Source: Paracoccaceae bacterium
GTDB taxonomy: Bacteria > Pseudomonadota > Alphaproteobacteria > Rhodobacterales > Rhodobacteraceae
NCBI GenBank assembly: GCA_025458985.1
Contig: JALORM010000001.1
Span: forward strand, 1 to 42,821
Direction of reading: 5' to 3'
Length of the DNA stretch: 42,821 bases
Within the stretch, counting starts at the first letter, position 1; every line of letters begins with the position of its first letter. This document shows, piece after piece, positions 7,269 through 42,821 of this stretch. Both the position numbers and the translations under genes were made by a program. The notes under the pieces are model-generated. The model saw only the letters and a program-made list of their open reading frames with translations. It was not told the origin of the DNA and ran no database searches.

Positions 7269-7499
7269 ATGCCCGCCGCGCGCCATGCCTTCGTCCCGCG
7301 CCTGCTGCCCGCTCCGGCGGCGGCGCACTATCTCGGCGTGAGCGAAACGACGCTGCGCGGCCTCGGCATTCCGCGGCGGCGACTGGAAGGCAAGCGGGTC
7401 TACGACATCGCAGACCTTGACCTGTACGCCGACAGCCTCCCCTATGAGGTCGAGGGGAGGCCCAGCACATGCGCCGGCAGATTCGGGCGGCCACGGTGA
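7269..7499 (+). CDS. xis: excisionase-like helix-turn-helix protein
   Basis: Internal ATG at 7269. LLPAPAAAHYLGVSETTLRGL...GKRVYDIADLD is an AlpA/Xis-type HTH. The gene lies immediately upstream of int and overlaps it. Confidence 0.6.
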   Translation: MPAARHAFVPRLLPAPAAAHYLGVSETTLRGLGIPRRRLEGKRVYDIADLDLYADSLPYEVEGRPSTCAGRFGRPR

Positions 7500-8554
7500 C
7501 TCTGCGTGTCAAGATCGTCCACGCGCGCGGGCGGCGTTACGTCTACACCGCCACGCCACCGCGGGTGCGACTTCCTGACCTGCCGTTCGACCACCCTGAG
7601 TTTCTGGCCGCCTACGCGCGCGCCACGAGCGGCGCAGTCATACCGCGGCGCATCGGGGCCGGCACCATAGCGGCGGCCGCTGCACTGGCCGCCGGCTCGG
7701 CAAGGTTCAAGATGCTGGCACCAGCCTACAGGCGCGCGATGCGGGCCGAGTTCGACGCGATCCTGGAACAAGCTGACGACGCGCTGATCGCAGACCTTCG
7801 CCCTGCCGACATCCGCGACGACCTGCGCCCGCTGGCGCCCCACGCTGCCCGGAAACGGCGCAAGGCGTGGCGGATGATCTGCGCGGCCGCGATCGAGGCG
7901 CAGTTGATCGCGGAAGACCCAAGCGCCACCGTCAAGCCGCCGGCCCCGCCCCGGACGGACGGGCACGAGCCGTGGTCGCCCGACGAGGTTGAACGGTTCC
8001 GCGCCCGCTGGCCTGTCGGGACGCAGCAGCGCGCGATGATGGAACTGATGCACTGGACCGGCGCGCGGATCAGCGACGCCGTCCGCCTCGGGCCGGGGAT
8101 GGTCGACGGCGACGGCGTGCTGACGTTCCGACAGGGGAAGACCGGCGGGCAGAGCTACGTGCCCTGGACATGCCCGCTGCCGCCCTACGCGGCAGGGATG
8201 GCGGCCGACCGGGCCGCGATGCACGCGGCGTTGGGGGCGATCCCGCGGCACATGACCTTCCTAAGCACAGCGCACGGCAAGTCCCGCTCGACGAAGGCCG
8301 CAGCGTCCTACCTGTCACAGGCAGCGCAGGCCGCCGGCCTGACGGACCGCACCGGCCACGGGCTCAGGAAGGCGCGGGCCATCGCGCTGGCCGAGTCGGG
8401 CGCGACGACGCACCAGATCGGCGCATGGACGGGCCACGCGACCCTGGCCGAGATCGAGCGGTATACGAGGAAGGCAAGCCGGCGCGCAGCGGTCATGGGA
8501 ACGGAACAAGACCGGAACACAGGAAAACGCCGGAAGGGTTCGGGAAAACAATGA
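7469..8554 (+). CDS. int: tyrosine recombinase / phage integrase
   Basis: Motifs TGARISDAVRL (Arg), HGLRKA (HxxR) and ERYTR (catalytic Tyr region) are present. Confidence 0.9.
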   Translation: MRRQIRAATVTLRVKIVHARGRRYVYTATPPRVRLPDLPFDHPEFLAAYARATSGAVIPRRIGAGTIAAAAALAAGSARFKMLAPAYRRAMRAEFDAILEQADDALIADLRPADIRDDLRPLAPHAARKRRKAWRMICAAAIEAQLIAEDPSATVKPPAPPRTDGHEPWSPDEVERFRARWPVGTQQRAMMELMHWTGARISDAVRLGPGMVDGDGVLTFRQGKTGGQSYVPWTCPLPPYAAGMAADRAAMHAALGAIPRHMTFLSTAHGKSRSTKAAASYLSQAAQAAGLTDRTGHGLRKARAIALAESGATTHQIGAWTGHATLAEIERYTRKASRRAAVMGTEQDRNTGKRRKGSGKQ

Positions 8555-29671: not shown

Positions 29672-29878
29672 TCAGACCCCGCGATCGAAGACCGGGTTGA
29701 CGTGCCGCGTCACGAGGCTACCAGCCTGGGCGGCAAGCCCCTTGGCCACCGTGTTCCGGGCCGAGATCAGCTCGGCCATGGAGCGATAGGTCAGGCGCTT
29801 GCCATCGTACTCGGCGGACAGGACGCCCGAGGCGATCGCGGCGTCGAGCGCATCGAGTTGCGCCTGCGTGTAGCTCAT
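29672..29878 (-). CDS. head-tail joining protein gpW-like
   Basis: Internal ATG at 29878 (ATGA overlap with terL). A 68-aa protein containing DGKRLTYRSMAELI, between terL and the portal as in lambda. Confidence 0.6.
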   Translation of the reverse strand: MSYTQAQLDALDAAIASGVLSAEYDGKRLTYRSMAELISARNTVAKGLAAQAGSLVTRHVNPVFDRGV

Positions 29879-31938
29879 ACCCAATCCTCGCGATCTGGCA
29901 CCCAACCGGCTGACCCGGGCGTTGCCTTCTTTGGTGCAGGCGCCTGACGGCCTGCCTCTGGCGGCCTAGTCGGCGCCACAGGCGCGACCGGAACAGCGAA
30001 AAGATCACCTTGCCGGCTGTTGTCGATGGCCGGGCACCGCTCGGCGCGCAGTGCGGCCCATTGGTCTGGCGTCAGCCGGTCGAGCCGCAGGTGATAGGCC
30101 ATCGCGCGCGCGTAGCAGGCGATGTCGAGCGCTTCGTTCGGGCGACCGGCCAGCTTCTCCCAGCGACGGGTAAGCACACCGGACCTCGTCTCGGCCTCGA
30201 CCAGATGCTCGGCGGTCAGCTGTTCGGTATAGGCAAGACTCACGTCACCCGGCAGGATCATCGCGCCGGACTCCCATTCGCCTTGCTCGTTTCTCCCGCG
30301 GATGGTTCTCCGGATCGCCGAATAGAGGTCCGACTTAAGCGCGAAGGTGCCTACTGGCCAGATCACTGCGCCACGCGGCACCCGCTTGCCGTTCCACTTG
30401 ACGTCGACCTTCTTGGCCGCGCCGATGAACGGGTCGGTGCGGCGCGTGTCGCGGCCGTCTACCGCGAACACCCGCGGGTTGCGACGGGCATAGTCATAGA
30501 CCGCCTGACTGACGTATCCGGAATCGACAGCCCAGGCCTCGACCTCGACGGTTCCGCTTCCTCCCGGTGCATACTTGGCAGCCTCCATCACGCGGTCGTG
30601 CGCAGCCCAGGTCGCCCGATCGTTCGGGTCGCCCTCGATCACACCCCAGTCGACGAGCCAGCGTGTCATCCCCTCCGACCAACCCCAGACCGCCCACTCA
30701 AGCCTGTTACCCTGTACGTCCGTCGCGCCGGTGAACACCACGGGACCGACCGGAGGTTCGCCCCGGCGGTACTCGATGACCCGGCGCGCCAGCAGCTGTT
30801 CCGCGTCGGGCGCATCGCCCTTGTCTTCCCATGGCTCTCCCAGAACCTGCTGCGTGAAGACCCGCATCCGTTCGTGTCCGGTGGACGCCTCGATGAATTC
30901 CGCCACGATCGAGTCCCATGACGAGAAAAGGCTGTAGGCCTTCCAGATGTGAAAGCCTCGCACCCGCGTCGGAACCTCGCGCGTCCGCCAGCGCTCTATC
31001 TCGCAAGGCTCGATCACGGGCGGCGGCCCATCCTCGCCTGCGGTCGGGATCCAGACACCGGCCGCCATCATGTCGGCCTTGGCGTCTGGCAGGATCACGC
31101 AACCCGAGGCTTGGCATTCGAACCACGCCCGGTGCGGCCATTCCTCGCTTTCCCACTTCAGCCCGTCGAAGGCGAGGATCTGGTAAGATCCGCAATGCGG
31201 GCATGGCACGTACCGCCGGCGCATGTCCGACCGCTCGTAGTCCGCGGTGATCCTGCACATGCCGACAATCGACGGTGTCGAAACCCAGAAGCGCTTCCGG
31301 TCCCGCTCGTACGTCTCGGTCCGTTTCTTGAGCTGGGCGACCGGGTCGCCGCGTTCGCCGGCGGTGGCAGGCCATTCGCTGACTTCGTCGGCGATGGTGT
31401 AGCGCGCCGACAGCATCTGCAGGCCCTTGGACGACCCGGCAAACGTGACCTGCGCGAAGCCGCCGCGGAAGCGCTTGTAACTCGCGGTACTTCCCCGCTC
31501 TGTCCTCGTGGTCAGTTCCAGCACCTGCCGCCGAAGGTTCGGCGTCACGTCGATCGACGGCTGCAGCTTCGTCCTGACGTACTTCGTCGCCTCTTCGTGA
31601 CTCGGCAGCACAAGGATCATCGGCCCAGGGTCCTGATCGACGACGAACCCGAAGAAGTTGATCCCGACCTCCGACTTCCCGACCTGTGCCGAGGCCACGA
31701 AGACCACGTCCTCGCATGGATCGTCTGGCCCCAGCGCATCCATGATCTCGACCAGGTGCGGGGCCCTGACGTTGCGCCATGGGCCTGGATAGCGCGATCC
31801 ACTCTCGGCTGACAGGACGCGATGACGATCTGCCCACGCTGCAACGGACAGATTCTCGCGCGGGCGCAGCGCATTCGCCAGTGCATCCATGACGACCGGG
31901 CCGGCTGGCGCACACCCGGCAAGAGCCTCAAGCTGCAC
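29875..31938 (-). CDS. terL: terminase large subunit (lambda GpA family)
   Basis: P-loop-like VASAQVGKSE. Size and gene order match the Nu1-A-W-B arrangement. The start is GTG at 31938 or ATG at 31890. Confidence 0.9.
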   Translation of the reverse strand: MQLEALAGCAPAGPVVMDALANALRPRENLSVAAWADRHRVLSAESGSRYPGPWRNVRAPHLVEIMDALGPDDPCEDVVFVASAQVGKSEVGINFFGFVVDQDPGPMILVLPSHEEATKYVRTKLQPSIDVTPNLRRQVLELTTRTERGSTASYKRFRGGFAQVTFAGSSKGLQMLSARYTIADEVSEWPATAGERGDPVAQLKKRTETYERDRKRFWVSTPSIVGMCRITADYERSDMRRRYVPCPHCGSYQILAFDGLKWESEEWPHRAWFECQASGCVILPDAKADMMAAGVWIPTAGEDGPPPVIEPCEIERWRTREVPTRVRGFHIWKAYSLFSSWDSIVAEFIEASTGHERMRVFTQQVLGEPWEDKGDAPDAEQLLARRVIEYRRGEPPVGPVVFTGATDVQGNRLEWAVWGWSEGMTRWLVDWGVIEGDPNDRATWAAHDRVMEAAKYAPGGSGTVEVEAWAVDSGYVSQAVYDYARRNPRVFAVDGRDTRRTDPFIGAAKKVDVKWNGKRVPRGAVIWPVGTFALKSDLYSAIRRTIRGRNEQGEWESGAMILPGDVSLAYTEQLTAEHLVEAETRSGVLTRRWEKLAGRPNEALDIACYARAMAYHLRLDRLTPDQWAALRAERCPAIDNSRQGDLFAVPVAPVAPTRPPEAGRQAPAPKKATPGSAGWVPDREDWV

Positions 31939-38076: not shown

Positions 38077-38699
38077 GCCATGACCCCACGAAAACCCCGC
38101 CCGGGCGCCATGCGCGACCCGGGCGGGCAGTCCAACAGGGAGGATGTGCCGGGCATCCCGTGCGGGCGCGGCCCGGCGTCGCGCTGCCAGACCGGCCGGG
38201 AGGAGGTGGCCGATCCCCGCAGGGCATTCCGAAAGCCGCCCGTCCGCGCCACAGGCAGCGGACGGGCGAAGGTGCGGCGGCGCAGGACAGGACGCGCCGC
38301 CGAGGCAGAACCGATACCCTGCGGGGCGGCCCCCGCTCTCGCCCGGGCAGGGCGCAGGTTCCGGGCCTTTCGGGCGTTCCCATGGCAAGCGCCACCGGCG
38401 GCTCCCGACGTCAGGCCCGGCTTGGTTGCGGACAGGTCCTGCGCCCCGCCCGAGGTATAGCCGCCGGTCAACTCGTTGCGGCGGGCGGCGCGCTGCGCGC
38501 TGCCGCCCGCCGGGTGGCGCCGCCTGACCGCGCCACCGACCCGCAGCAGGCTCCGGCCCGATGCTGCGGGTATGGAATTCCCGAATTGAAACGATCCGCC
38601 GCCCAGCGCACCTTTGTCGCCAGGCAAGCCACATTCGCAGCGGTCCACCGGCAGAAGACCGGGGCAGCGAGGGACAAGCGATGCGCCACAACCGATCAC
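38073..38699 (-). CDS. Gly/Arg/Ala-rich hypothetical protein
   Basis: Only this frame shows the high GC3 expected of coding sequence: 17/20 and 19/20 G or C in two hand-checked 60-nt samples. It has GTGA and ATGA overlaps with both neighbours. Confidence 0.4.
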   Translation of the reverse strand: MIGCGASLVPRCPGLLPVDRCECGLPGDKGALGGGSFQFGNSIPAASGRSLLRVGGAVRRRHPAGGSAQRAARRNELTGGYTSGGAQDLSATKPGLTSGAAGGACHGNARKARNLRPARARAGAAPQGIGSASAARPVLRRRTFARPLPVARTGGFRNALRGSATSSRPVWQRDAGPRPHGMPGTSSLLDCPPGSRMAPGRGFRGVMA

Positions 38700-38971
38700 G
38701 CTGCGTCACCCTCGGCGGGCACCACGGTTTCATCCCCGACCAACGCCGGATCCGAGGGCGCAGGCGAAACGAATGCGAACAGTTCCCGCGGGCAACTCGC
38801 GCCCTTTGCAGCGCAAAGATCGGCAATCACAGCGTACCACTTCGCCGGAAAGCGACCCGCGACTGCGGCATTGGAGATCGCTGTCTTGCGCACACCGAGA
38901 GCTGCGGCCATCTCGCCGCGACCCAGGAGGTCGCAGATGCCCGACGCGGTTACTAGGGTTTCCGTGCTCAT
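38696..38971 (-). CDS. Cro-like / YdaS-type HTH protein, first gene of the leftward early operon
   Basis: LLGRGEMAAALGVRKTAISNAAVAGRFPAKW is HTH-like. It is divergent from the repressor, and its ATG lies 8 nt after the promoter -10. Confidence 0.65.
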   Translation of the reverse strand: MSTETLVTASGICDLLGRGEMAAALGVRKTAISNAAVAGRFPAKWYAVIADLCAAKGASCPRELFAFVSPAPSDPALVGDETVVPAEGDAA

Positions 38972-38979
38972 AGACGGAA

Positions 38980-39008
38980 GTCATAGTCCACGATTTGTGG
39001 ACTTGCAA
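38980..39008 (-). promoter_or_regulatory. leftward early promoter with a 19-bp palindromic operator filling the spacer
   Basis: The minus strand reads TTGCAA-GTCCACAAATCGTGGAC-TATGAC. The operator AGTCCAC-N5-GTGGACT spans 38985..39003. Confidence 0.65.
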
Positions 39009-39042
39009 GGTCCATGTGATAGGCAACCACGAAAAATGGACC
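39009..39042. promoter_or_regulatory. inverted repeat GGTCCAT-N20-ATGGACC with operator-like half-sites, spanning the repressor start
   Basis: Read directly from the sequence. The half-sites resemble GTCCA/TGGAC of the main operator. Confidence 0.35.
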
Positions 39043-39392
39043 TGCGCTATAACGCGGGCATGGACATCGACGCTCGCCACCACCTGGCTAGAACCGGCGA
39101 TATCAGCCTCAAGGCTTGCGCGATCCGCCTTAGCGCTGCGCGCATCGTGGCGGGGGCGTCGCAGAAGGACATAGCGGCGGCCGTCGGCATCAGGAAGACC
39201 GCATACTCCAACATGGAGGTCGGACGGTCTTTCCCGTCACGCGACGTGATGCGCTGGTTCTACAGGCTGCATCGGATTGACTTCAACTTCCTCATTCACG
39301 GGGACTTCGCGCAACTCCCTGGCGACGTTCAAGAGCGGCTTTTCTCTGCGCTCGCAGCCGCAAGCAGTGAATGGGATCGAAGACAAGGTTAA
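39036..39392 (+). CDS. CI-like XRE-family repressor
   Basis: ASQKDIAAAVGIRKTAYSNMEVGRSFPS is an XRE-type HTH. It is divergent from the Cro-like gene. An alternative ATG lies at 39060. No clear SD is present, so the mRNA may be leaderless. Confidence 0.8.
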   Translation: MDLRYNAGMDIDARHHLARTGDISLKACAIRLSAARIVAGASQKDIAAAVGIRKTAYSNMEVGRSFPSRDVMRWFYRLHRIDFNFLIHGDFAQLPGDVQERLFSALAAASSEWDRRQG

Positions 39393-39403
39393 GGTCAACG
39401 CCA

Positions 39404-39423
39404 GCGCGACGCAAAAGTCGCGC
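39404..39423 (+). terminator. 7-bp hairpin GCGCGAC-GCAAAA-GTCGCGC after the repressor, without a U-tract
   Basis: Read directly from the sequence. Confidence 0.3.
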
Positions 39424-39501
39424 GATCTGAAACATGAGGCGACGCATCCGTGACTCCCGTTACGACTCCCCATCCAGCACCACAAGAATAAGGAGAAGTC
39501 G

Positions 39502-39855
39502 ATGTGTGACAACAACCTTGTGGTATCCCGCGAAGACCGAAGGCGGCTTCGACGCCGGCGCATCGCGGCGACAGTTTTCACTTTGACTTGCATAGCGTCC
39601 TGCGACTCGTTCGAGACCGAGCCCAGTCAGACTGTCCGACTCGACGGCTACCTTGTGTCAGTCGAGAAGGTTGCAGGGAGGAACTCCTACTTCGCCCGCC
39701 ACCTCTCAGGCCAAGGCGTTGGGTCCACGGATGCGGCGGCGAGCGCCCGTCACATTCGCGCGATCGAACAGGTTGCGGGTTGCCCCGCAGATCCTCTATC
39801 GATCAGTCACAATCCCTACGGCTACAGCACGGCCGCCGTGAACTGCCCGGCCTGA
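39502..39855 (+). CDS. lipoprotein co-located with the repressor (superinfection-exclusion candidate)
   Basis: AGGAG lies 6 nt before the ATG. The signal sequence has a canonical lipobox (TLTCIASC, i.e. I-A-S-C). Confidence 0.7.
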   Translation: MCDNNLVVSREDRRRLRRRRIAATVFTLTCIASCDSFETEPSQTVRLDGYLVSVEKVAGRNSYFARHLSGQGVGSTDAAASARHIRAIEQVAGCPADPLSISHNPYGYSTAAVNCPA

Positions 39856-39881
39856 CCGCCGACATACCTGCCTTTTGACGC

Positions 39882-39911
39882 GGACCGCCATTGTGGCGGT
39901 CCATTTTTTTT
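39882..39911 (+). terminator. rho-independent terminator
   Basis: GGACCGCCA-TTG-TGGCGGTCC is followed by ATTTTTTTT. Confidence 0.85.
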
Positions 39912-39923
39912 GGACCACACCGC

Positions 39924-39952
39924 TTGACAGTCCACTTTTTGTGGACTATTGG
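39924..39952 (+). promoter_or_regulatory. rightward early promoter with the same 19-bp operator in the 17-nt spacer
   Basis: TTGACA-GTCCACTTTTTGTGGAC-TATTGG. The operator AGTCCAC-N5-GTGGACT spans 39929..39947. Confidence 0.7.
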
Positions 39953-39977
39953 TGCTTCATCGACGCAACCCCGATGG

Positions 39978-40361
39978 ATGACGCCAATGCCTCTTTCCCT
40001 CTACCATCGCACCCTGATCCGCATCTTCGGCCTTGATCGCGTCCCGGCGGCGCTGCGCGAGGAACACGAAGCGAACGAGCGGCGGGAACGCTTCGCACAG
40101 CGCCTTTCGGCACTTGCCGCGGCACGCCTGTCTCGCGACGCCGAGGAACAGCAGCATCGGGAAACGTTGGCCGGCCTGCGGGCCCAGATTGCCGACGCCC
40201 TCGGCGCCGCCCCGGTGATCTCGGGCCTGCGCTGGGTCGAGGATCTGATCGGCCCGCGGATTGCCGAGGAACCCGATGCCGTCCTGGCGTTCTGCGCCAA
40301 GCTTGAGCGCGCCGCCATGACCATCAAGGCCGAGCGTGCGGTGCGGGAGGGCCGGCAATGA
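39978..40361 (+). CDS. hypothetical helical protein, first gene of the rightward early operon
   Basis: Uses the in-frame ATG at 39978 (or 39987) downstream of the promoter. The upstream part of ORF 39891.. spans the terminator. Confidence 0.6.
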   Translation: MTPMPLSLYHRTLIRIFGLDRVPAALREEHEANERRERFAQRLSALAAARLSRDAEEQQHRETLAGLRAQIADALGAAPVISGLRWVEDLIGPRIAEEPDAVLAFCAKLERAAMTIKAERAVREGRQ

Positions 40362-40543
40362 CCCGCCCCGACGATCCGCCGCCCGGCCGCACCTACCACC
40401 AGTTCCCGCCGCTGCGCCCGCAGGACGAGATCGACAGGGGCCGGCGGCTCGACTTCCGGCTGCCCTGGCTTCTGACGGTCGGCGCCGGCTTCGCCGTCAC
40501 GCTCGCCCTCGCCGCGAGCTGCGCACTCCAAGGACCCTTCTGA
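40358..40543 (+). CDS. small protein with a C-terminal TM segment
   Basis: ATGA overlap upstream. The TM segment is LPWLLTVGAGFAVTLALAASCAL. Confidence 0.5.
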   Translation: MTRPDDPPPGRTYHQFPPLRPQDEIDRGRRLDFRLPWLLTVGAGFAVTLALAASCALQGPF

Positions 40544-40601
40544 CCACCGGGCGGGGGCGCCCACCACTCAACCCACCAACCAAACCCAAGGAGACTGAGA
40601 C
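40541..40601 (+). repeat. conserved cassette leader, copy 1
   Basis: TGACC..GGGCGGGGGCGCCCACCA...AGGAGACTGAGA-ATG. It shares an 18-nt core and the RBS block with copies 2 and 3. Confidence 0.8.
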
Positions 40602-40907
40602 ATGAAGACCCTGACGACTCTTGCCGCCCTGCTGATGGCCACGACCTCAGCGTTCGCCGCGGGCGACGCCACCGAGACGGTCCTGCTGCGCGACTGCCCG
40701 CTTACGCAGATCGACGGCAGCAACGCCTTCTTCCGGAGCGATGTGACCCTGCCGCAGTGCCAGTTCCTGAATGCGCACGCTGGCAACGGCCCGCGCCCGG
40801 TCGCCGAAGAGCCGGAGGATGAGGATGAGGGCGACGAAGAGGGCGGCGAGGAAGAAGACCACGGCGACGAGCCGCCGCCCTCGTGCAAGACCGCTCGCGG
40901 CTGCTGA
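40602..40907 (+). CDS. secreted protein (101 aa) with a signal peptide, a Cys-x20-Cys loop and a poly-acidic tail; paralogue A
   Basis: Signal peptide MKTLTTLAALLMATTSAFAAG; tail EEPEDEDEGDEEGGEEEDHGDE. Confidence 0.65.
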   Translation: MKTLTTLAALLMATTSAFAAGDATETVLLRDCPLTQIDGSNAFFRSDVTLPQCQFLNAHAGNGPRPVAEEPEDEDEGDEEGGEEEDHGDEPPPSCKTARGC

Positions 40908-40919
40908 GCCGCGGGGCAG

Positions 40920-40960
40920 GCATCGCGAGGCGCAAGGTGGAGGCCCCAAGCTCGCGATGC
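40920..40960 (+). other. perfect 10-bp inverted repeat GCATCGCGAG-N21-CTCGCGATGC
   Basis: Read directly from the sequence, in the 172-nt gap after paralogue A. Confidence 0.6.
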
Positions 40961-40987
40961 ACTGACGTTCCGGTGCCCGGCCCTGCG
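40960..40987 (+). repeat. 28-nt cassette trailer, copy 1
   Basis: CACTGACGTTCCGGTGCCCGGCCCTGCG matches 42720..42747 at 27 of 28 positions. Confidence 0.85.
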
Positions 40988-41079
40988 CCCTCATTATCGG
41001 CGCCGCTATGGGCTGACTGATGGGCGCCGTCCTGCTCGCCGCTCTGATTTTCTGACGATTCACAAAGGAGACTGACACC

Positions 41080-41364
41080 ATGATTGGCAAGAAATGTATC
41101 GTTCGCTGCTACGCGAGCGGGGTCCATTACGGGACGGTGACGGCGCACGACGGGCGCCAAGTCACGCTGGCGGACAGCCGTCGCCTGTGGCGCTGGCACA
41201 CTGGTGGCACGGACAGGGGCGTGAGCCTGAGCGCCGTGGCGCTGACCGGCATCGACGCGAAGCGCAGCGTGATCGAACCCGTCCTCCCTGAGATCGTCCT
41301 GCTGGACGCGCTTGAGATCATACCGGCTTCGGCTGCCGCAATTTCCAGCATCGAGGTCGCGTGA
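41080..41364 (+). CDS. conserved small phage protein (94 aa)
   Basis: AGGAGACTGACA lies 2 nt before the ATG. The pattern IVRCYASGVHYGTV...RRLWRWHTGG...SLSAVALTG is recalled as a recurrent phage family of unknown function. Confidence 0.65.
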   Translation: MIGKKCIVRCYASGVHYGTVTAHDGRQVTLADSRRLWRWHTGGTDRGVSLSAVALTGIDAKRSVIEPVLPEIVLLDALEIIPASAAAISSIEVA

Positions 41365-41639
41365 TGTTCGAGGGCTACGAAAGCGACGGCTCCGGCTCCG
41401 GCGACGGCTCCGGCTACGGCTACGGCTCCGGCTCCGGTCACGGCGACGGCTACGGCGATGGCTCCGGCGATGGCTCCGGCGACGGCTCCGGCTACGGCTC
41501 CGGCTCCGGCGACGGCTTCGGCGACGGCTCCGGCTACGGCTCCGGCTCCGGCGACGGCTTCGGCGACGGCTCCGGCTACGGCTCCGGCTATGGCTCCGGC
41601 GACGGCTCCGGCTACGGCTCCGGCGACGGCTATGGCTGA
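41364..41639 (+). CDS. (X-Gly)42 dipeptide-repeat protein, acidic and lacking Lys/Arg
   Basis: The start overlaps the upstream stop (GTGATG). This frame has G or C at essentially every third position. The stop is followed by leader copy 2. Confidence 0.6.
   Translation: MFEGYESDGSGSGDGSGYGYGSGSGHGDGYGDGSGDGSGDGSGYGSGSGDGFGDGSGYGSGSGDGFGDGSGYGSGYGSGDGSGYGSGDGYG
41385..41636 (+). repeat. 6-nt periodic ggc-(tcc/tac/gac/ttc) coding microsatellite-like region
   Basis: Read directly from the sequence. Confidence 0.9.
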
Positions 41640-41685
41640 CCCTGGGCGGGGGCTCCCATCAACCACCACTCACAGGAGACCACCG
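41637..41685 (+). repeat. conserved cassette leader, copy 2
   Basis: The 39-nt core at 41642..41680 differs from 42374..42412 at 2 positions. Confidence 0.9.
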
Positions 41686-42372
41686 ATGAAGCACCTGACC
41701 CTGACCGCCTGGCACTTCACCGGCAACACCCTGCGCGACGGCCGCCCGATCCCTCCCATCGGCGAAACGCTGGTGCACGATGGGAGGGTGGTGATCTGCA
41801 AGGCGGGTCTGCACGCGAGCATCCGACCGGCGGACGCCCTGGTTCACGCGCCGGGACCAATCCTGCACCGCGTCCGTTGCGAGGAAATCGTGGACGAGGA
41901 AGCCGACAAGCTCGTCTGCCGCCGCCGCACCATCCTGGCCAGCATCGACGCGACGCAATTGCTCCGCCGGTTCGCGGCCAGCCAGGCGCTTACCGTTGAA
42001 CACCTTTGGCAAGCGCCGATGCCGGACGTGGTGCGGGAGTACCTGACCACACTGGACGACGGCTTGCGGGACGCCGCGCGGGCCTCCGCGATGGACGCCA
42101 GCGTGATCGCCGCGATGGACGCCACGATGGACGCCGCGCGGGCCTCCGCGATGGACGCCGCGCGGGACGCCGCGAGGGCCGCCGCGAGGGCCGCCGCGAT
42201 GGACGCCACGTGGGCCGCGACGAGCGCCACGGGGGCCGCCACGTGGGCCGCCTCGCGGGCCTCCGCGAGGGCCGCGATGGACGCGGCGTGGGCCGCCACG
42301 ACGGCCGCCGCGTGGGCCGACTTCGACCGGCGCGTTGGGGAGGCGTTCGCGGACACCCCGACAAGTTACTGA
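41686..42372 (+). CDS. protein with a conserved N-terminal domain and a C-terminal degenerate Ala/Asp/Trp/Met repeat region
   Basis: Internal ATG at 41686 after GGAGAC. The N-terminal domain contains ICKAGLHASIRPADALVHAPGPILHRV. The repeats are of the types AARASAMDA, AARDAARAA and TWAA. Confidence 0.7.
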   Translation: MKHLTLTAWHFTGNTLRDGRPIPPIGETLVHDGRVVICKAGLHASIRPADALVHAPGPILHRVRCEEIVDEEADKLVCRRRTILASIDATQLLRRFAASQALTVEHLWQAPMPDVVREYLTTLDDGLRDAARASAMDASVIAAMDATMDAARASAMDAARDAARAAARAAAMDATWAATSATGAATWAASRASARAAMDAAWAATTAAAWADFDRRVGEAFADTPTSY

Positions 42373-42419
42373 CCTGGGCGGGGGCGCCCACCAACCACCA
42401 CTCACAGGAGACTGACAGA
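42370..42419 (+). repeat. conserved cassette leader, copy 3
   Basis: See copy 2. It ends with AGGAGACTGACA. Confidence 0.9.
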
Positions 42420-42725
42420 ATGAAACGCCTGACCCTGACCGCCGCGCTGTTGCTCGGCACCGCCAGCGCCGCGAGCGCCACCATGGAGACCGCCGTGATC
42501 GACGGCTGCGTCGTCATCCCCATCGCCGGAACGGCCGGCACTGCCTGGCAGAAGATCGACCCGAACTGCGGCCGGTGGATGCCCAGCAGTGGCCCCCGCG
42601 CCGCTCGCGAGGTGCCGGACGACGACGAAGACCCGGACGACGACGACGACGGCGAAGACCCTGGCGACGATCCGAAAGACTGCCCGCCGAAGGACGACGA
42701 GCCCGAGACGCCGAAGAGTCACTGA
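42420..42725 (+). CDS. secreted protein (101 aa) with a signal peptide, a Cys-x19-Cys loop and a poly-acidic tail; paralogue B
   Basis: Signal peptide MKRLTLTAALLLGTASAASA; tail DDDEDPDDDDDGEDPGDDPKD. It has the same length as paralogue A. Confidence 0.65.
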   Translation: MKRLTLTAALLLGTASAASATMETAVIDGCVVIPIAGTAGTAWQKIDPNCGRWMPSSGPRAAREVPDDDEDPDDDDDGEDPGDDPKDCPPKDDEPETPKSH

Positions 42726-42747
42726 CGCTCCGGTGCCCGGCCCTGCG
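42720..42747 (+). repeat. 28-nt cassette trailer, copy 2 (includes the stop codon of paralogue B)
   Basis: Matches 40960..40987 at 27 of 28 positions. Confidence 0.85.
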
Positions 42748-42754
42748 GGGCCGG
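42737..42754 (+). other. 7-bp GC hairpin CCGGCCC-TGCG-GGGCCGG at the circular junction, without a U-tract
   Basis: Read directly from the sequence. The right arm is missing from trailer copy 1. Confidence 0.5.
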
Positions 42755-42821
42755 CATCCCGAACGCCAGAGAGGAAATCAAATGAGAACGACTGCAGAAT
42801 ACCAGGCGATGATCGTGGACG
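42741..42821. repeat. terminal direct repeat, copy 2 (contains the duplicated 5' end of the LRR gene, ATG at 42782)
   Basis: Identical to 1..81. Confidence 0.95.

Follow-up and report, generated by a model that had tools for sequence, protein, structure and literature searches.

A covarying hairpin that embeds stop codons between small early genes of temperate phages

The window analysed here, the whole 42,821-nucleotide (nt) stretch of contig JALORM010000001.1 (assembly GCA_025458985.1, Paracoccaceae bacterium), is derived from a temperate phage and carries, at the head of its rightward early operon, a block of repeated non-coding sequences between small genes. We refer to these as leaders L1, L2 and L3 and trailers A and B. 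In our view they are probably copies or derivatives of one composite intercistronic element, which a group of temperate phages uses in early operons and which would act both as a post-transcriptional expression module and as a recombination junction. The unit would run from a UGA stop in the base of a hairpin, through a C/A-rich, G-poor spacer and a strong Shine-Dalgarno (SD) sequence similar to AAGGAGA, to the next start codon. The copies in the window would then comprise one intact element (trailer B), a variant behind the leucine-rich repeat (LRR) gene, a remnant (trailer A) and a form private to this genome (L1–L3). A first-pass annotation, made from the letters alone, had parsed the block into leader–gene–trailer cassettes. 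This parsing is wrong, as leader and trailer are better described as alternative forms of one intercistronic unit. The hairpin family to which trailer B belongs apparently represents widespread and undescribed folded RNA spacers between small early genes of temperate phages.

The hairpin family and its covariation

The lead came from relatives of the DUF6948 protein of the window in IMG/VR, which showed sequences resembling trailer B before the DUF6948 gene, with different yet complementary stems. An exact 26-nt trailer pattern had no match in IMG/VR, and the family emerged only once the pattern was recast as a structure (CTGA-N6-GGTG-N8-TGCG-N7-CATCC). The structural pattern returned 54 matches in 49 IMG/VR contigs. 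The free 7-nt arms are perfectly complementary in 50 of the 54 matches, and nine or more distinct stem sequences occur among them. With a second pattern, 15 further IMG/VR contigs were found, for about 64 in all, and the element is also present in the metagenome relatives L009, L010, L040/L041 and L116–L118. In GenBank, only two phages carry it, the Microcystis phages Mae-JY02 and Mel-JY03; the Mae-JY02 element lies in the early operon, downstream of XRE and Cro genes. Individual contigs hold up to seven co-oriented copies in 4.8 kb. Four IMG/VR contigs, L094 (1849–4775), L074, L098 and L091, have four to seven hairpin copies each between ORFan genes, and the copies within one contig display different compensating stems (CCAGCCC, CCGCCCC, CTGGCCC, GCCACCC and GGGGCGG), some with GGAU or UGAUG loops.

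The fold was assessed with an alignment of 31 distinct hairpin copies (A3), for which RNAalifold predicts the same structure as that proposed here. Standard pairs account for 94.9% of the cells, and 11 of the 19 pairs show compensatory changes; none of 500 shuffles reached the observed values, and slid partners gave 33–47% pairing. The lower helix lies outside the search pattern, yet it covaries at all five of its pairs. The hairpin is about 48 nt long and consists, from base to tip, of the UGA stop (with its U and G paired), a 5-bp helix, an internal loop, a mid-section in which GG/UG pairs with CA(U)CC around a bulged U, a one-base bulge, and a 7-bp helix capped by a loop that is usually UGCG (UNCG type).

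The hairpin alignment contains 18 G.U cells versus four C.A cells. A covariance model of the family (R1), with which members score about 35–78 bits, gives the mirror strand approximately 22 bits versus approximately 75 (about 50 bits lower), and all copies are co-oriented with the genes. The G.U excess and the lower mirror-strand scores indicate that the folded strand is the sense strand. The first-pass suggestion of a shared RNA-level element is supported for the trailer, which is a covarying sense-strand structure, but not for the leader hairpin, which is without structural support.

The hairpin also keeps a regular position relative to the translation signals on either side. The embedded stop terminates an upstream open reading frame (ORF) of at least 30 amino acids (aa) in 88 of 104 copies, and the distance from the hairpin to the next start codon has a median of 21 nt (about 12–38 nt). 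The spacer between them is composed of 38% A, 35% C and 13% G across the family, and the SD sequence is most often AAGGAGA.

Rfam 15 yielded no match at gathering score in the window, with only chance-level matches within 39800–42821, and no match at E ≤ 1 in four multi-copy contigs. A literature search on the stem sequences found no paper, and keyword searches returned analogues only.

Copies and derivatives in the window

Trailer B (42716–42773, forward strand, as are all element copies described below) is a canonical stop-codon hairpin. The hairpin itself spans 42722–42769, with UGA 42723–42725 in its base and a UGCG loop. This UGA occupies columns 8–10 of A3, with U8–A53 and G9–C52 paired, and the element is matched by R1 over its full length with 70.4 bits (E = 1e-20). 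It is followed by the SD sequence GAGAGGAAAT and the LRR start at 42782; the sequence following is CCAGAGAGGAAATCAAATG.

The two 28-nt trailer copies reported at first, 40960–40987 and 42720–42747, are indeed identical at 27 of 28 positions, with none expected by chance. Trailer A (40960–40987) is a truncated element, in which the 5′ arm and loop match trailer B and the homology ends at the hairpin apex, so that no 3′ arm is left. The TGA of this remnant and the upstream gene A are in different reading frames. In L116, the nearest relative by DUF6948 (89% identical), an intact element is found at the junction where the window has trailer A, and in L117, L118 and L040 a canonical element follows the Gly-X gene, where the window has L2.

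A variant hairpin element is located after the LRR stop (TGA 756–758) at 749–807. It scores 13.3 bits with R1 and keeps the lower-stem flanks of trailer B (TGACGCT on the 5′ side and, on the 3′ side, TCCCGAACGCCAGAGAGGA, which is a run of 19 identical bases), while its apical stem differs. The LRR gene is thus flanked by two element copies, trailer B and this variant. Trailer A and the three leaders were not detected by R1 in the window.

Leader L1 (40541–40601) consists of the stop TGA, the sequence GGGCG-GGGG-CGCCC, a 30-nt G-free C/A tract and the SD sequence AGGAGACTGAGA. L2 (41637–41685) has the same layout, with a C.U mismatch in the hairpin and a 22-nt G-free tract, and L3 (42370–42419) forms a 40-nt direct repeat with L2 at 95% identity. 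As described in the first-pass annotation, all three begin at the upstream TGA and share GGGCGGGGGC(G/T)CCCA and AGGAGAC; the cores 41643–41680 and 42375–42412 differ at two of 38–40 positions, where shuffles predict no match. A 12-mer, AGGAGACTGA(C/G)A, that had been placed shortly before four start codons does occur four times (2061–2072, 40589–40600, 41066–41077 and 42406–42417) versus 0.16 expected, with 1–2 nt between each copy and an ATG. The copy at 41066–41077 reads AGGAGACTGACA and precedes the DUF6948 gene. Overall, the listed repeats are all present, every one at a gene boundary and far above chance, and conservation of the boundary sequences greatly exceeds that of the coding sequence.

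The mini-hairpin GGGCG-GGGG-CGCCC finds no support as a structure: it is interrupted by the C.U mismatch in L2, and the leaders fold no better than shuffled sequences (z +0.3 to +1.2). The leaders keep the family layout of stop, small hairpin, G-free C/A tract and SD without the defining helices, and share only the spacer feature (0% G in the C/A tracts) among the criteria of the R1 family. The likeness of L2 and L3, which flank the DUF7666 gene as direct repeats, runs on into the first eight codons of the DUF7666 gene and of acidic gene B. These repeats, together with their eight-codon extension, are the expected leftover of recombination in or near such units.

The leader was not found outside the window genome in any collection searched. 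Scans for the exact core in IMG/VR, for the core together with AGGAGAC in collections of metagenomes and genomes, and for a relaxed form with any loop in IMG/VR gave only unrelated coding or intergenic matches, and nhmmer with the three leaders had no match among all fetched loci. On these comparisons, the leaders appear so far to be a variant private to the window genome. Descent of the leader from the 3′ half of the canonical element was considered; it is speculation, as the alignment is weak.

Gene exchange, mechanism and alternative readings

The trailer bounds different cargo genes from one relative to the next. Genes that flank the elements encode 131 distinct proteins, which group into 64 families and have a median length of 94 aa; for the ten largest families, the representatives gave no Pfam match above the curated cut-off. 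The same anchor gene (family 1) is followed by any of seven alternative next genes among the contigs. The indels that separate L094 from L074 span exactly one element-plus-gene unit, and their breakpoints occupy equivalent sites within elements, so that recombination at boundary sequences, one of the two possibilities raised at first, is seen in relatives as unit-sized indels. Homology breakpoints between related contigs fall within elements in 184 of 933 cases versus about 46 expected, a figure that is not set against element-free gene junctions.

In the window, the modules between identical boundaries are approximately 30% identical at the protein level. Acidic protein B is 40–43% identical to the L028/L029 protein encoded upstream of DUF6948, and is thus closer to it than to protein A. 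Whole-module duplication therefore does not explain the identical boundaries. The comparisons show such units in the apparent role of homologous-recombination junctions, since they are near-identical and placed exactly at gene boundaries. Small ORFan genes enter, leave and change places as element-plus-gene units, and this explains the direct repeats that flank the DUF7666 and LRR genes in the window.

In the mechanism that we favour, the hairpin would be the site at which a host factor acts on the polycistronic early mRNA. Either processing of the RNase III/E type or stabilisation of 3′ ends may be its task. The hairpin may also be a structural insulator, which locks the sequence after the stop while the G-poor spacer leaves the next ribosome site open in a G+C-rich transcript. 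The only proteins common to the window and the multi-copy contigs are DUF6948 and DnaN, which suggests a host factor rather than a phage factor, and the partner of the hairpin is thus likely a host factor, as far as gene content can tell. Pfam and PHROGs searches of the early operon of the window found no phage recombinase or RNA-binding partner. We advance more tentatively the further idea that the unit represents a new class of mobile regulatory cassette, in which an insulator that is processed by a host RNase or acts on the ribosome would standardise downstream expression and, being common to different phages, provide the substrate for plug-and-play exchange of early ORFans. If true, the exchanged early ORFan genes are possibly host-takeover or anti-defence genes. 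The DUF6948, DUF7666 and LRR annotations and the unannotated ORFs of the window neither favour nor disfavour such a role.

Several points weigh against the interpretation of leaders and trailers as one expression and recombination element. The window contains only one intact hairpin copy, trailer B. The link of the leaders to the family is suggested by layout, position and composition alone, and R1 misses them. RNase processing, stabilisation and translational insulation are proposed from the anatomy of the hairpin and by analogy with T7 RNase III sites and repetitive extragenic palindromic (REP) elements. The scope of the breakpoint comparison given above also belongs here. The blocks CTGA, GGTG, TGCG and CATCC were fixed by the first search pattern, and their invariance in A3 is partly by construction; model-derived matches outside the pattern keep GGUG/CAUC, and in them the first pair of GGUG is compensated as U-A and A-U. 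Finally, a structure of single-stranded DNA on the sense strand is possible.

An unlikely alternative is that recent intragenomic duplication or gene conversion left the window repeats behind as neutral scars, without any function of their own. The apparent confinement of the leader to the window genome would agree with this, as would its hairpin, which is broken in L2 and no stabler than shuffled sequence, and the continuation of L2/L3 identity into coding sequence. Trailer A, a non-functional half element, still matches trailer B at 27 of 28 positions, which is suggestive of a recent copy rather than of long selection. Against this, trailer B belongs to a family whose compensatory covariation is strong and spans dozens of phages, all copies stand in a constant register relative to stop codon, SD and start, and genes that lie between identical boundaries have little or no relationship to one another.

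We find it harder still to regard the hairpins as terminators or attenuators within the early operon that are read through by antitermination, as in lambda tR/tL or the terminator half of the promoter-early stem-loops (PeSLs) of T4. They are stable, G+C-rich and directly 3′ of stop codons, and PeSL stem-loops do terminate transcription in T4-type phages (PMC2839356). However, the hairpin elements have no direct U-tract and their 3′ flank is C/A-rich; a terminator scan called none of them, yet it called the U-tract terminator at 39882–39910, and the relatives use U-tract terminators elsewhere. Up to seven copies in 4.8 kb of one operon also argue against termination, and no antiterminator was identified.

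It is improbable that the elements are DNA sites, either recombination sites that fold as single-stranded DNA in the manner of integron attC, or sites of a DNA-binding protein. In favour of this reading, the elements are imperfect inverted repeats that contain extrahelical bases and are found in arrays, each at the 3′ end of a small gene without a promoter; their cargo is shuffled like cassettes, and the window encodes a tyrosine recombinase. This enzyme (7469–8554) is of the ordinary phage type: its product matches Phage_integrase, with weak Xer-type NCBIfam matches far below the cut-offs and no match to an IntI model. The attC cores R″ (RYYYAAC) and R′ (GTTRRRY) are absent within 42716–42773, and no GTT/AAC core is present at its ends, the base being CUGAC...GCCAG. 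Furthermore, the indel breakpoints lie at equivalent positions in homologous elements, as homologous exchange predicts, and the G.U bias, along with the close linkage of the elements to SD and start, indicates RNA.

A recoding signal for UGA read-through or selenocysteine insertion that lengthens the upstream protein is very improbable: the UGA is followed by C, a leaky context in Escherichia coli, with the hairpin immediately downstream and an open read-through frame in the window, but the frame from stop to next start is uniform (23/28/22), stem covariation alters the hypothetical peptide, the upstream genes are mutually unrelated, and some copies have TAA or a stop placed elsewhere. The frame read past the gene B UGA (42723–42785) is open for 19 codons, and its final TGA overlaps the LRR ATG (ATGA). 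The peptide SGARPCGA is common to this read-through and its equivalent in L040, which frame statistics suggest is a by-product of nucleotide conservation. Two further candidates were ruled out: an antisense small ORF in the hairpin, since the covarying stems alter it on reading the sequence, and a mimic of a CRISPR repeat, which would have to keep the repeat sequence, whereas the stems covary freely.

Genomic setting and comparison with known systems

The contig is circular with a length of 42,740 bp and 67.8% G+C; positions 1–81 of the window are identical to 42741–42821 (an exact 81-nt repeat). It encodes a large terminase (29875–31938, reverse strand) whose product has approximately 70% aa identity to the terminases of two phages deposited as cyanophages, a tyrosine integrase (the Phage_integrase match above), and a helix-turn-helix (HTH) regulator, which was confirmed (39060–39392). 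A protein with a GapR-like DNA-binding domain (PF10073; 34914–35267, reverse strand) hints at an alphaproteobacterial host. Based on these four genes, the contig is a temperate phage, and its host is probably an alphaproteobacterium, as judged from gene content. Four GenBank entries deposited as cyanophages of Nostoc, Synechococcus and Microcystis (PP438413, OP858991, PP395635 and PP395636) include the closest cultured phages by terminase and the sole GenBank carriers of the hairpin.

An intrinsic terminator with a 9-bp stem followed by T8 (39882–39910, forward strand) closes the upstream HTH operon. Sequence reading then places an early promoter at 39924–39946 (forward strand), with a TTGACA −35 hexamer and an overlapping operator palindrome, GTCCAC-N5-GTGGAC. 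The repressor-controlled early promoter proposed at 39924 is plausible, with TTGACA, a palindromic operator and a U-tract terminator upstream. Two perfect copies of the palindrome are present, at 38986–39002 before the HTH gene and at 39930–39946 over the early promoter, along with a degenerate third copy at 39899–39915; by their sequence and placement they are probably repressor operators. Searches of GenBank phages with 39800–42821 by megablast and blastn found no homologous region, only repeat-driven matches to the Ala/Asp repeat gene.

The genes of the array are all on the forward strand. The first encodes acidic protein A (40602–40907), with a signal peptide read by eye and its closest homologue in L116, upstream of DUF6948. 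The spacer between this gene and the DUF6948 gene (40908–41079) is long, at 172 nt, and contains a perfect 10-bp inverted repeat (GCATCGCGAG ... CTCGCGATGC) directly before trailer A and a possible hydrophobic mini-ORF of 11 codons (ATGGGCGCC...TTCTGA). The DUF6948 gene (41080–41364; PF22253, E = 8e-24) is followed by a (Gly-X)n repeat protein gene (41364–41639), whose start overlaps the DUF6948 stop (TGATG). The pair formed by DUF6948 and the low-complexity (Gly-X)n gene is conserved in L009, L010, L011, L030, L033, L037, L040, L117 and L119. Across many phages that otherwise differ, the pair is usually close to where the early operon begins. The Gly-X repeat is also where many metagenome contigs break off.

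The next gene (41686–42372) encodes a protein with an N-terminal DUF7666 domain (PF24703) and Ala/Asp/Trp repeats, and is followed by the gene for acidic protein B (42420–42725), for which a signal peptide was again read by eye. Acidic proteins A and B had been taken for secreted paralogues, a relationship that is not demonstrable (BLASTP E = 82, 30% identity over 70 aa). The LRR protein gene, between trailer B and the variant hairpin, occupies 42–758 and is the same gene as that from 42782 onward, across the circular junction. Its repeats, described over 19–846, are nine tandem 66-nt (22-aa) units with 81–94% identity, the ninth being more divergent (66%), and are unusually regular for a phage early operon. 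The sliding-clamp (DnaN-like) gene was reassigned to 817–1932. Its longest ORF begins at 739, within the LRR gene and the variant hairpin; ATG 817 is preceded by the SD sequence GAGAGGA, and the Pfam N-terminal domain then aligns from residue 1.

The closest described systems are the PeSLs of T4-type phages (Arbiol et al. 2010, PMC2839356; Comeau et al. 2014, PMC4122927), which have the same evolutionary role and different parts. A PeSL combines a sigma-70-like early promoter with a terminator stem-loop (PMC2839356, PMC4122927). Both PeSLs and the hairpin element are small composite cassettes repeated between non-essential ORFans in plastic regions, and in both, recombination between copies inserts, deletes or replaces genes, as reflected here in unit-sized indels and reordered cargo. 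PeSLs occur in T4-like myoviruses, whereas the hairpin element occurs in temperate phages of roughly 40 kb, lacks promoter-like hexamers and a U-tract, embeds a stop in the hairpin, and is coupled to a C/A-rich spacer and SD. A promoter scan of 38500–42821 found no forward-strand site at the leaders or trailers, and no AT-rich hexamers are present in the elements.

The start-associated sequences (SAS) and extended SAS (ESAS) of Cluster K mycobacteriophages (Pope et al. 2011, PMC3203893) are also similar in several respects. SAS are asymmetric, SD-containing repeats in one orientation right before the starts of some non-structural genes, as in the window, and imperfect inverted repeats stand in front of about half of them (PMC3203893); both kinds of repeat are suspected to act in translation. 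The window 12-mer with its upstream hairpin would thus be analogous to a SAS with inverted repeats. The SAS motif GGGATAGGAGCCC (13 bp), its 17-bp inverted repeats and its actinobacterial hosts are different, and the motif has only the AGGAG core in common with AGGAGACTGA(C/G)A. For SAS, stop-codon embedding and base-pair covariation are not reported, and a shuffling role is not known to have been proposed (PMC3203893).

Integron attC cassettes and the hairpin arrays both contain small genes that lack promoters, with an imperfect inverted repeat carrying extrahelical bases behind each gene, and in both the structure is conserved more than the sequence. The hairpin arrays differ in that they lack an integron integrase, R′/R″ cores, attI and Pc, and in their homologous-looking exchange and linkage to translation signals.

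Two bacterial and phage RNA structures offer a functional analogy. The RNase III sites of T7 are irregular hairpins of approximately 20 bp with internal loops between the cistrons of polycistronic mRNA, present as related copies that are each followed by the ribosome site of the next gene and are cleaved by the host enzyme. The hairpin element would resemble them as an irregular intercistronic hairpin of approximately 20 bp with a likely host-enzyme partner, and its 19 predicted pairs, interrupted by bulges and an internal loop, would provide the structural prerequisite of an RNase III site. There is no sequence similarity between the two, and we know of no T7 RNase III site that embeds a stop codon or acts as a gene-shuffling junction. 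REP elements stabilise the upstream mRNA and, near a stop codon, affect translation of the upstream gene; chromosomes carry them in hundreds of copies, and RAYT transposases spread them. Like REP elements, the hairpins are repeated, orientation-specific, G+C-rich imperfect palindromes after stops inside operons. In contrast to them, the hairpin element is phage-borne and is linked to the ribosome site that lies downstream of it; no RAYT was seen.

The element lacks defining features of PeSLs, SAS/ESAS, integron attC sites and intrinsic terminators. It would extend repeated shuffling cassettes to temperate phages of roughly 40 kb, probably of Proteobacteria, with a new make-up in which a stop-embedding RNA hairpin is coupled to an unstructured ribosome site. 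The covariance model is a practical marker, which finds plastic accessory-gene arrays in metagenomic phage contigs and corrects gene starts, such as that of DnaN at 817. The clean covariation offers a testable handle on how unrelated small early phage genes are expressed and swapped.

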